Shown here in pieces: positions 33,381-35,512 of a DNA stretch of 64,000 bases. Under the pieces are notes generated by a model. That model made no database searches, was not told the DNA's origin, and saw only the letters and a program-made list of their open reading frames with translations. Within the stretch, counting starts at the first letter, position 1. Each line of letters opens with the position of its first letter. The DNA lies in the sequence record KM657822; one strand, 5' to 3'. The translations under genes were made by a program, and so were the position numbers. Origin of the DNA: Escherichia phage vB_EcoM-VpaE1.

Positions 33381-33424
33381 AATGACCTCAAAGTTATATT
33401 AAATTTTGTATTACATTGAGTATA

Positions 33425-33453
33425 AAAATAAGCTATAACACCTGACTTGTCAA
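33425..33453 (-). promoter_or_regulatory. sigma70-like promoter on - strand (TTGACA-N17-TATTTT)
   Basis: Reverse complement of 33448-33453 is TTGACA; -10 TATTTT from 33425-33430; about 45 nt upstream of the 33380 start. Confidence 0.4.
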
Positions 33454-33496
33454 CAGATTTTATAGCTTATTTGGCAGATTTTTTATAAGGCTACTG

Positions 33497-33575
33497 CCAT
33501 CCTTCCATACATTACCTTACCTTACCTCACCTGACCTGACCTGACCCTACCTAACATTACCGTGCCACACCTCAC
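33497..33575. repeat. pentanucleotide-phased ACC array 1
   Basis: ACCTT ACCTT ACCTC ACCTG ACCTG ACCTG ACCCT ACCTA ...: ACC recurs every 5 nt for ~15 units. Confidence 0.7.
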
Positions 33576-33636
33576 TTAAAAACCCTCTTAAAAGACTCTT
33601 AAGTGATGTAATCGAATTTTTATGTAGCTCCGATTA
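33573..33636. repeat. conserved hairpin pair A+B
   Basis: Hairpin A CACTTAA...TTAAGTG then hairpin B AATCG-aatttttatgtagctc-CGATT; repeated at 35111-35178 and partly at 35024-35054 and 35261-35299. Confidence 0.6.
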
Positions 33637-33638
33637 AC

Positions 33639-33710
33639 TACCCATACCAAGCCTAACCTGACCGCACCAAACCTTACAACACCACACCATACCTGACCAT
33701 ACCAAACCTC
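33639..33710. repeat. pentanucleotide-phased ACC array 2
   Basis: CCCAT ACCAA GCCTA ACCTG ACCGC ACCAA ACCTT ... Confidence 0.7.
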
Positions 33711-33732
33711 ATTAAAAGACCCTCTTAAAGAC

Positions 33733-33760
33733 CTTTTAAAAAGGAGCCTCCGAAGAGGCT
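33733..33760 (-). terminator. rho-independent terminator on - strand
   Basis: Hairpin AGCCTC-cgaa-GAGGCT; on the - strand followed by CTTTTTAAAA. Confidence 0.45.
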
Positions 33761-33771
33761 ACCTAGTCAAC

Positions 33772-34212
33772 TTAGAAAGGTTTTCTACGTTGCTTGTTAA
33801 TGTTAGCTTTCATAGCAGCTAAATGGTTTTGCTGTTCAATCAGTCGTGAGCGTTCTTGATGGCTAAGTGCCATAGTGTTCACATTCTCAATCGCTTGAGT
33901 GGCTTGCTTTAAAGCGCGACCAATCTTACCAGACATTTTACGTTTTGCAATAGTTGCTTGATGCTTAGGTTCAACCACACGATAACCAACACCCATTGAA
34001 GCAACCAGATAAATCTTCTCTTCTTTAAGAAGCTTCTCAATAAACTTCTCAAGTCGGTTTAGACGTGTAAGCGCATAAGCCTTCATTTCATCTTCGTACT
34101 TAACAATGTCACCTTGATAAGTTGGCTTCACAATACCTAAGAAGGTGTCCATCTCAGAGTGTGATACAGTGTCACCGTAACTAAACTTTGCTGCTAATGC
34201 TTTTGTATTCAT
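33772..34212 (-). CDS. hypothetical protein (repeat-flanked cassette gene 2)
   Basis: 146 aa ORF, start 3 nt after upstream stop; C-terminus basic. Confidence 0.45.
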   Translation of the reverse strand: MNTKALAAKFSYGDTVSHSEMDTFLGIVKPTYQGDIVKYEDEMKAYALTRLNRLEKFIEKLLKEEKIYLVASMGVGYRVVEPKHQATIAKRKMSGKIGRALKQATQAIENVNTMALSHQERSRLIEQQNHLAAMKANINKQRRKPF

Positions 34213-34214
34213 AA

Positions 34215-34802
34215 TTAAACGTTACCTTCTGAAATAACTTCTACAGAAAAACGACCAAAGCGTGGACGCCAATCACCTACACCACAAAGGTTACCAGCAT
34301 TTTCCAGAACCATCAGGAGTTCCTCTCGGGTAATTTGCTCTTCATCGAACATCAAACCAAACTCTACAGACCAATCACGGAAGATTGGACGGTAGCTCAT
34401 AACTCGTGCTGTACCAATCTTAACAGATTTAGCATAGATAAAATCTGGATTCTTAGCAAGTTCTTGTGGGTTTGCTGGACAGTTCTTGATAGTCATTGGG
34501 AAGACTACATCTGTCAGCATAATGGCTCGGTCAATTACCTTACCAAGTTTGTTGAGCTTTGCACCAGACTTGATACAAGCCTCAATCATCTCACCGTTCA
34601 TAACAAAACCAAGTTGCTCATCGTAGTAACAAGAAGTTACCAGTTGACTTTCTGCTAAGAGCGCATAGTCTTCGTCAGTCTTTTTACGTTTACTGGACAG
34701 AGACTTGTGATATTTTGTCAGAGGGTTTAATGGGTCTGACAGCGTATCGTTATGGCTCAAGAAAGGACGAGTACCAGTGATTTTGACATTTAACAGTTTC
34801 AT
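34215..34802 (-). CDS. hypothetical protein (repeat-flanked cassette gene 1)
   Basis: Start taken at ATG (MKLLNV...) behind GGAG; track GTG start at 34817 also possible. Confidence 0.45.
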
Positions 34803-34898
34803 AGCATTTAGCTCCACACTTTAGTTGATTGTTAAGTTGTTTGTAAAGAACCCTCAACAGAAGACTCTTTAGAAACTTGGTAGATTTTTAACGTGGCT

Positions 34899-34990
34899 AC
34901 TACCATCCACCCATACCATACCGAACCTTACCTTACCAAACCAGACCGCGCCTTACCAAACCAGACCAAACATTACTTTACCCTACCTCA
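34899..34990. repeat. pentanucleotide-phased ACC array 3
   Basis: ATACC ATACC GAACC TTACC TTACC AAACC AGACC ... Confidence 0.7.
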
Positions 34991-35054
34991 TTAAAAGACC
35001 CTCTTAAAGACCTTTTAAAAAGGTAAGTCTCATTTTAATGTAGCTGAGACTAAC

Positions 35055-35108
35055 TACCCATACCTCACCCTACCAGACCAGACCTTACCCTGCCAGACCC
35101 TACCGAAC
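35055..35108. repeat. pentanucleotide-phased ACC array 4
   Basis: CTACC CATAC CTCAC CCTAC CAGAC CAGAC CTTAC CCTGC CAGAC CCTAC. Confidence 0.65.
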
Positions 35109-35174
35109 ATCACTTAAAAATCCTCTTAGAAGACTCTTAAGTGATGTAATCGAATTTTAATGTAGCTCCGATTA

Positions 35175-35262
35175 ACTACCCATACCCTGCTTTACCTTAC
35201 CGTACCGTACTTTACCCTACCGTACCGAACAATACTTAACCCGACCTTACCCTACCGGACAT
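35175..35262. repeat. pentanucleotide-phased ACC array 5
   Basis: Same ACC-every-5-nt pattern, flanked by hairpin A/B copies. Confidence 0.65.
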
Positions 35263-35512
35263 CACTTAAAAACCCTCTTAGAAGACTCTTAAGTGATGCT
35301 GGTGAGTACCCGTTGGTTTATGATGCTCAGTATACTCACCAAATTTTCTATGTCAACAACTTTTATAAAAAAGTTCTGATAGCTATATGCGTCACGAAAC
35401 AAAAGATTGTAAACAAGACACCCATTGCAAAAGATGTGTCCAAAAGCTTACTTGCAACATATGACAATACAAAGACAACCAGTATAAACAAAATGACTGT
35501 ACTGAACATAGT

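Follow-up and report, generated by a model that had tools for sequence, protein, structure and literature searches.

The DNA analyzed here is a 64,000-nucleotide (nt) stretch of Escherichia phage vB_EcoM-VpaE1 (sequence record KM657822; hereafter, the window), and its region between 33.4 and 35.3 kb is, with a probability that we put at about 0.93, a complete type II VIPR (Viral Interference Programmable Repeat) locus of the SUSP1 clade in a Felix O1-like myovirus. VIPR is a CRISPR-like RNA-guided DNA-silencing system with which Felix O1-like phages act against a parasitic satellite, and it was described in two preprints of April 2026 (bioRxiv 10.64898/2026.04.26.720920 and 10.64898/2026.04.26.720927). 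According to these preprints, the Vipr protein is a minimal RAMP, and its vrRNAs consist of 9 to 16 GGY/NN repeats followed by an invariable tail of about 40 nt, which forms a pseudoknot in the SUSP1 clade. The clade is defined by more than 90% identity to the SUSP1 Vipr, and its guides mostly target a satellite phage. The evidence from SUSP1 includes small-RNA sequencing, pull-down, repression of green fluorescent protein, and cryo-electron microscopy, together with reprogrammable DNA targeting. Since the locus belongs to this characterized clade, the feature itself is already known, and the window represents another clade member with its own guide set. A previous reading of the same letters (the original prediction) had stated that nothing of known type explains the arrays, which is out of date given the VIPR anatomy and an encoded protein 97% identical to the solved SUSP1 Vipr.

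The anatomy of the region follows that of type II VIPR. It encodes a Vipr protein with more than 90% identity to that of SUSP1 (a single-RRM RAMP with a G-loop and a thumb) and one vap gene, and this pair is flanked by intergenic regions that carry vrRNAs on the same strand. The vrRNAs contain 10 to 16 GGY/NN units, whose first position is looser than the published consensus, and each ends in a 3' tail with a hairpin and a pseudoknot. Four of the guides (U1, U2, D1, and D2) match satellite targets at 80% or more of their NN bases and lack self-targets, and the fifth (U3) reaches 0.70. The window is Felix O1-like myovirus DNA, and its array region matches 229 Felixounavirus-type phage records, mostly at 90 to 95% identity.

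Five strictly 5-nt-phased arrays, all in one orientation, lie at 33501-33712 and 34907-35270, within two blocks (33.40-33.77 kb and 34.85-35.31 kb) that had been described as noncoding and are so. On the plus strand they appear as chains of exact ACC triplets at 33514-33571 (array 1, 10 exact ACC), 33646-33708 (array 2, 11), 34915-34967 (array 3, 10), 35062-35104 (array 4, 8), and 35184-35226 (array 5, 7). Besides these five, there is no period-5 ACC chain of at least six in the window, and the few period-5 chains of other trinucleotides correspond to overlapping TAC and CCT inside the same arrays. In 200 dinucleotide-preserving shuffles of the window, the longest chain was 4 and none reached six, compared with the 7 to 11 exact hits observed, which bears out the strict period that was originally reported. 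A relaxed scan, based on G-Y at unit positions 2 and 3, returned exactly five tracts, all on the minus strand (35270-35176, 35118-35054, 34991-34907, 33712-33638, and 33580-33501). U1, U2, U3, D1, and D2 (arrays 5, 4, 3, 2, and 1) have 16, 10, 15, 13, and 14 units; the earlier figure of 12 to 18 units each was slightly too high for array 4, and the range is 10 to 16.

The neighboring genes are all coded on the minus strand, and on this strand the arrays read (GGY-NN)n, in agreement with the proposal that it is the functional strand and that its transcripts carry (GGUNN)n tracts. GGY is found in 56 of the 68 units and AGY or UGY in the remaining 12. In the position statistics of the units, position 1 is G in 77%, A or U in about 23%, and never C. 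The NN positions use all 16 dinucleotides, and because these two spacer bases vary, Tandem Repeats Finder detects the arrays only as fragments. The window U1 differs from the orthologous vrRNA of phage E9 at six positions, five of them at NN and one, a C/U change, at Y. Eleven related loci carry four to five vrRNAs each, in varying arrangements.

Each vrRNA is composed of 10 to 16 GGY-NN units and then a tail of about 35 nt with a predicted H-type pseudoknot. All coordinates that follow are on the minus strand, those of the tracts being set by the unit layout. The U1 tract (16 units, UGUCC ... GGUAU) spans 35182..35261 and is followed at 35147..35181 by a tail of type T1a, with stem 1 GUAG/CUAC and stem 2 UAAUCG/CGAUUA. 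The 10 units of U2 (35060..35109) lead into a T1b tail (35025..35059), whose stem 2 is the compensatory variant AGUCUC/GAGACU. The 15-unit U3 tract (34913..34987) ends in a T2 tail (34877..34912; stem 1 GUGG/CCAC, stem 2 UGGUAG/CUACCA), which is the same as the SUSP1 vrRNA1 tail. In the other block, D1 comprises 13 units (33644..33708) and a T1a tail (33609..33643), and D2 comprises 14 units (33507..33576) and a T3 tail (33471..33506; stem 1 AAGG/CCUU, stem 2 UGGCAG/CUGCCA).

A gap-free alignment of 15 distinct 38-nt tails places stem 1 at columns 3-6/17-20 and stem 2 at columns 8-13/30-35. In this alignment, 94.7% of the cells are paired, compared with 26 to 49% when the 3' partners are slid by 1 to 3 columns as a control, and 8 of the 10 pairs show compensatory changes on both sides. 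The second conserved hairpin of the original prediction, hairpin B (AATCG/CGATT, with the variant AGTCTC/GAGACT), is confirmed, including its compensatory change, and corresponds to stem 2 of this pseudoknot. A search of 33380-35400 against Rfam gave a single hit (E 0.68), inside the vap1 coding sequence, and left the arrays unmatched; throughout the 64-kb window, only tRNAs reached the Rfam gathering score.

The vipr gene (34215..34802, minus strand) encodes a 195-amino-acid (aa) minimal RAMP (Cas7-like) protein, identified by a profile match and by identity to the phiSUSP1 Vipr. The vipr family profile (hmmsearch) matches one solved structure, PDB 36pp, "SUSP1 Vipr protein" (E 2.5e-79), and the window protein is identical to the phiSUSP1 Vipr at 189 of 195 positions (97%). 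All six differences are outside the published RNA/DNA contact residues, with H17, K33, R39, E71, M72, K82, G87, K88, R138, C173, D177, W178, and R179 retained. An AlphaFold2 model (predicted local distance difference test score, 95.9) has as its best PDB folds the Csm3/Cas7 subunits of type III and type VII CRISPR effectors, at a template modeling score of about 0.5 and only 10 to 15% identity. The family alignment shows a C-terminal glycine-rich motif, and the family includes more than 500 members without annotation.

The accessory gene vap1 (33772..34212, minus strand; 146 aa) is identical at 145 of 146 residues (99%) to the gene that follows vipr in phiSUSP1, and vap1 enhances defense in SUSP1, as reported in the same two preprints. 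No function was obtained for vipr or vap1 from Pfam, PHROGs, or PADLOC. These two open reading frames (ORFs) between the array blocks are the protein partners that the original prediction overlooked, although its suggestions of a protein-binding array and of a structured RNA were correct in substance, with one Vipr protomer expected per GGY/NN unit and conserved RNA hairpins.

The association of arrays and vipr extends to unrelated phages. A scan of IMG/VR for (ACCNN)6ACC matched at least 120 contigs, and the following counts refer to the matches listed. Arrays with variable NN were found in 52 contigs, the others being plain microsatellites; the median array length is 12 units and the modal length 11 to 13, with up to 17 arrays at one locus. 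Clustering of the ORFs around them revealed one family of about 190 aa that adjoins the arrays in about 37 of the 52 contigs, with 36 of 39 family ORFs on the GGY strand, and the window ORF at 34802-34215 belongs to this family. The arrays usually begin no more than 75 nt from the stop codon of the vipr homologue, and in most unrelated loci they stand downstream of genes only. In four IMG/VR contigs, very compact vrRNA arrays lie directly 3' of a vipr homologue (L099, 1564-2725; L011, 4600-5047; L027, 2098-2594; and L021, 1232-2421). They have 7 to 17 tracts with joints of 4 to 15 nt (NNAACTGCC, CATTAGCC, TGCC, and AAATTAAATTCATT) and no long tail or hairpin between tracts, and they are probably the staggered or other array types of the preprint.

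The targets of the guides were sought with the published rule, by which each NN pairs and one target base is then skipped (NNx), and with a threshold of at least 80% of NN bases. A 90-nt stretch of U3 and its tail matches 152 E. coli chromosomes, within an island of about 11 kb. This island carries genes for a large serine recombinase, a baseplate protein, a tape-measure protein, and an HNH endonuclease, along with orphan genes. It has no vipr and one orphan vrRNA. The satellite baseplate protein is 69% identical to the product of window ORF 19867-20634, and the satellite tape measure is 31% identical to that of window 17618-19258. Pfam and PHROGs returned nothing for the targeted satellite genes.

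When six satellite islands were scanned with the window guides, U1 matched a 185-aa orphan satellite coding sequence at 28 of 32 NN bases (0.88), and U2 matched the satellite tape-measure gene at 18 of 20 (0.90). The full D1 guide matched at 23 of 26 (0.88), its 12 internal units reaching 22 to 23 of 24 on the template strand, and its target is of the same 185-aa gene family as that of U1. The D2 target is a 107-aa orphan coding sequence, matched at 23 of 28 (0.82) by the full guide and at 21 of 22 by the first 11 units. Permutation of the unit order gave maxima of 24, 17, 23, and 22 for full-length U1, U2, D1, and D2, respectively. The skipped base is codon position 3 for U1, U2, and D1 and codon position 2 for D2. 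Among the 34 unique guides of 11 related loci, 22 reached at least 80% in nine satellite loci, compared with 1 of 34 for permuted controls. Guide variants also track satellite variants; the window U1 fits the island of E. coli 2013C-3492, and its orthologue in phage E9 (L083) fits a degraded satellite copy (L123) at 29 of 32. No self-match of 80% or more was found in the phage's own 64 kb, where the best sites reached 0.65 to 0.73. These matches suggest that an integrated E. coli satellite with Felix O1-like baseplate and tape-measure genes is the target of four guides, all but U3, and the locus would therefore silence a parasite of the phage during infection.

Some observations concern the satellites and the guides themselves. 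The island occupies 10352-21070 of locus L124 (E. coli 2013C-3492, NZ_CP027445.1), between wrbA and ymdF, and is also found in L125 to L128, being inserted in a DUF72 gene in L126. Other satellite carriers include E. coli S40 and RM9154-C1. The target sites predicted for U1, U2, D1, and D2 lie at 18338-18387, 13850-13881, and 16825-16865 of L124 and at 9999-10036 of L125. Its orphan vrRNA has its own TATAAT-like promoter, a T2-like tail with a compensatory stem 2 (GUCG/CGAC), and a GC-rich terminator; the orphan guides of the satellites had no convincing match in the phage window (best, 20 of 28). In three D2 orthologues (L037, L129, and L130), GGUCA occurs 3 to 4 times and GGUAA 1 to 5 times, in the part corresponding to window region 33507-33530. 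The last three units of D2 (GGUAA GGUAA UGUAU) vary in number among relatives, and its GGUAA units mismatch the target. In the bumzen copy of U2, two units are duplicated and the fit to the target is poorer (0.75 versus 0.90). This gain and loss of whole units, together with the occurrence of the same guide at different positions from phage to phage, suggests that slippage and recombination may renew the guides without a Cas1-Cas2-like machinery.

Each vrRNA is preceded by a long hairpin, present in two forms, A and A', on the minus strand. Hairpin A stands before U1 (35260..35298; -14.1 kcal/mol, z -3.3), where its 3' arm enters the first repeat units, before U2 (35107..35147; 19 bp with a 3-nt loop, -22.9 kcal/mol, z -8.1, with 0 of 200 shuffles as good), and before D2 (33570..33608; -13.0 kcal/mol, z -4.3). 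Hairpin A' stands before U3 (34986..35023; a weaker fold, -6.3 kcal/mol) and before D1 (33707..33744), both copies being assigned by alignment and pair counts. The original prediction had recognized hairpin A (CATCACTTAA...TTAAGTGATG), which is indeed present in three copies, and its supposed loop turned out to pair as well, giving a stem of 17 to 19 bp with a 3-nt loop. In 23 distinct copies of A and A', 93.5% of the cells are paired and six pairs change on both sides. The 3' arm of the hairpin extends into the first repeat unit, and the unit right after the hairpin (UGUCC in U1 and UGUUC in U2) already matches the target.

In type I and type V VIPR systems, hammerhead ribozymes lie between the vrRNAs (fig. 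S19 of the preprints), and the SUSP1 vrRNAs are about 100 nt long (VIPR preprints). The preprint text that was searched mentions neither RNases nor maturation nor hairpin A. We tentatively propose, with somewhat less than even odds, that hairpin A is the maturation signal of type II VIPR arrays, at which an RNase III cut would release the guides and part them from the vipr mRNA. A transcript with several vrRNAs would be cut at the 17- to 19-bp hairpin into mature guides of about 90 to 120 nt, most likely by the RNase III of the host. If true, hairpin A would be the counterpart of the type I/V hammerhead ribozymes and of CRISPR repeat processing.

By analogy with SUSP1, for which the preprints show this mechanism, one Vipr protomer would bind each unit, burying GGY and presenting the NN dinucleotide. 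The resulting filament would read double-stranded DNA, with each NN pairing two target bases and every third base skipped, and an R-loop triplex would form and block transcription. Several points weigh against the assignment of the window locus to this system. Expression, Vipr binding, and silencing by the window vrRNAs are borrowed from SUSP1, and both sources are preprints. G2 and Y3 were required by the definition of a unit, and their constancy is no independent result; the statistics of positions 2 and 3 are circular because the units were picked on G-Y. The covariation of the long hairpin comes mostly from the single split between A and A', and its role as a processing site is something we infer because the length of SUSP1 vrRNAs fits the span of about 100 nt from hairpin A to the end of the tail. 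The promoter scan detected no promoter for the D1/D2 block, which is separated from vap1 by a hairpin resembling an intrinsic terminator (AGCCUC UUCG GAGGCU and a U-run; 33745..33760, minus strand), located after vap1 and just before block 1; equivalents of the D1/D2 vrRNAs are expressed in SUSP1 (VIPR preprints). The margin of U2 over its permuted control is small (18 versus 17). U3 has no confident target, its best satellite site (21 of 30; 0.70) being no better than chance. Its best 8-unit pattern occurs in at least 120 unrelated viral contigs of IMG/VR, with no locus above 24 of 30 among the matches listed, and these matches are attributed to chance because the pattern is AT-rich.

The alternative that fares best is nonetheless very improbable, namely, that the arrays are a cis-acting or sponge RNA, a TRAP-like wrapped (GGUNN)n leader that controls the translation of vipr and vap with no guiding to DNA. 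Both the 5-nt period, made of a triplet and a 2-nt spacer, and the modal 11 to 13 units resemble a TRAP site, and block 2 is located between the promoter and vipr, as a 5' leader would be. Under such a model, the NN bases would be neutral, yet they match satellites far above permuted controls, and the arrays also stand downstream of genes, as they do exclusively in most of the unrelated IMG/VR loci described above. Moreover, the preprints show reprogrammable DNA targeting for the 97%-identical system and, in SUSP1, repression of a reporter that follows NN.

Even less credible is an element acting as double- or single-stranded DNA to which a phage protein would bind, such as a replication origin, a packaging site, or an iteron array; an origin or a packaging site was among the candidates of the original prediction. 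The arrays do lie among genes for replication and nucleotide metabolism (ligase, dihydrofolate reductase, and thymidylate synthase), they are repeated and flanked by inverted repeats, and a few public assemblies of relatives open near the array region. A 5-bp period, however, sets successive sites on opposite faces of the duplex, out of helical phase. The conservation is specific to one strand, and the flanking structures covary as RNA does, including G-U pairs and a pseudoknot. Furthermore, the variable dinucleotides, when decoded, find their matches in another genome, that of a separate mobile element, and the partner protein, linked to the arrays in unrelated phages, is a Cas7-like RNA-binding RAMP solved with this kind of RNA.

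A functionless pentanucleotide microsatellite produced by replication slippage can practically be set aside: slippage of units does occur (in the D2 orthologues and the bumzen U2) and plain perfect (NNACC)n microsatellites exist in viral contigs, but the units differ at NN while G2 and Y3 are kept, conserved covarying structures bound the arrays, and the same design adjoins vipr homologues in unrelated phages, a conservation pattern that refutes slippage as a sufficient explanation. Primase recognition arrays, G-quadruplex or i-motif tracts, and Rho utilization sites were likewise considered. Like the origin, packaging, TRAP-like, and microsatellite readings, they were dropped because a RAMP gene is linked to the arrays in unrelated phages and because of the match to the SUSP1 Vipr.

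The type II VIPR locus of the window can be compared with several known systems, of which phiSUSP1 (KT454805.2; PDB 36pp) is the closest described. Both share the promoter, the three tail types T1, T2, and T3, the A and A' hairpins before each vrRNA, the same neighbors (with DNA ligase upstream), and guides at the same satellite family. They differ in that SUSP1 is a Suspvirus, whereas the window matches Felixounavirus records, in the number of vrRNAs (one upstream and three downstream in phiSUSP1, compared with three and two in the window), and in the NN sequences of the guides. The type I and type V VIPR arrays with hammerhead ribozymes also have a structured element between consecutive vrRNAs, where cleavage must fall, but the element of the window is a plain 17- to 19-bp hairpin with no ribozyme core. 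Cleavage at this hairpin would need a host enzyme, given the missing core and the lack of an Rfam match beyond one chance-level hit.

Class 1 CRISPR-Cas (Cas7/Csm3) shares with VIPR the RRM/RAMP fold, the G-rich loop, the thumb, one protomer per RNA segment of fixed length, periodic base flipping, and a variable guide capped by a conserved structured handle. In the CRISPR effectors, however, the period is 6 nt, five of which pair, whereas in VIPR it is 5 nt, with three sequestered, two pairing, and a 1-nt skip in the target; in addition, VIPR is encoded by phages and has no cas1/cas2, repeat-spacer array, protospacer-adjacent motif, or second RAMP. A CRISPR array consists of identical direct repeats of about 23 to 50 bp and unique spacers of similar length, with cas genes, including cas1/cas2, adjoining. 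In the window, the modules are tail-plus-hairpin elements of about 75 nt between tracts of variable length, and no cas families were found among the neighbors; CRISPR is not the explanation, as had been said before, and VIPR fits instead.

TRAP sites have in common with VIPR a conserved triplet with a 2-nt spacer, about 11 repeats, and one subunit per repeat. TRAP, however, recognizes the triplets and disregards the spacers between them; the protein closes into a ring, and its action is in cis, on its own leader. In VIPR, the triplet is only the handle, and the spacers are informative. A TRAP leader is made of (G/U)AG triplets with 2- to 3-nt spacers, bound by the MtrB/TRAP ring protein. In the window, the triplet is instead GGY, Pfam gave no match for the proteins encoded alongside, and no TRAP-like protein is present, the product of vipr being a RAMP. 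Neither the Felix O1 genome paper nor the Bas63 essentiality preprint mentions the arrays, and the general literature on pentanucleotide repeats in phages was uninformative.

VIPR is of interest as a gapped RNA code, in which two bases are read and one is skipped, carried on a Cas7-like filament, and the authors of the preprints propose that CRISPR effectors descend from it. The core discovery was made by the VIPR preprints. In the window, the system occurs in a phage of the Felix O1 type; such phages serve in the typing of Salmonella and E. coli and in therapy. With four guides assigned to a satellite in the chromosome that has tail genes in common with the phage, the locus would represent a concrete conflict between phage and satellite in ordinary strains of E. 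coli. Beyond what has been published, the analysis contributes the covarying long hairpin between guides, the tolerance of A or U in place of the first G in the GGY handle, and the satellite assignments.

On the minus strand, the order of the locus is promoter, vrRNAs U1-U2-U3, vipr, vap1, and vrRNAs D1-D2. The promoter is a strong one of the sigma-70 type (TTGACA N16 TATACT; 35329..35356, minus strand), agrees with the consensus at 11 of 12 positions, and reads into the upstream vrRNA block and vipr. Its sequence is identical in phiSUSP1, upstream of vrRNA1, which was detected by small-RNA sequencing in SUSP1 (VIPR preprints). Possible sigma-70 promoters for individual vrRNAs inside hairpin A or A' were limited to weak matches seen by eye, none of which passed the scan. 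The U-run of the terminator-like hairpin after vap1 doubles as the 5' arm of hairpin A'. The annotated neighbors are thymidylate synthase, dihydrofolate reductase, a helix-turn-helix regulator, and DNA ligase, and all neighboring genes are coded on the minus strand, as are the arrays.

At 35301-35340 (minus strand), an 8-bp hairpin (GGUGAGUA...UACUCACC), conserved in phiSUSP1, covers the -10 box and the first 30 nt or so of the predicted vrRNA/vipr transcript, and it could be a regulatory or 5'-protective structure. After the D2 tail, at 33430-33468 (minus strand), there is a 9-bp stem (AAGCUAUAA...UUAUAGCUU) followed by AUUUUUAU. Its loop holds the -35 hexamer of the promoter of the next gene (33453-33425), and the stem may both terminate the vrRNA block and occlude this promoter.

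Elsewhere in the window, ARAGORN identified 25 tRNA genes at 1080-5917 (plus strand), of which 23 reach the Rfam gathering score; tRNA clusters are typical of Felix O1-like phages. Finally, tandem repeats of 27 to 30 bp lie within a coding region at 26358-26686; they are similar to those reported inside genes 76 and 77 of Felix O1.

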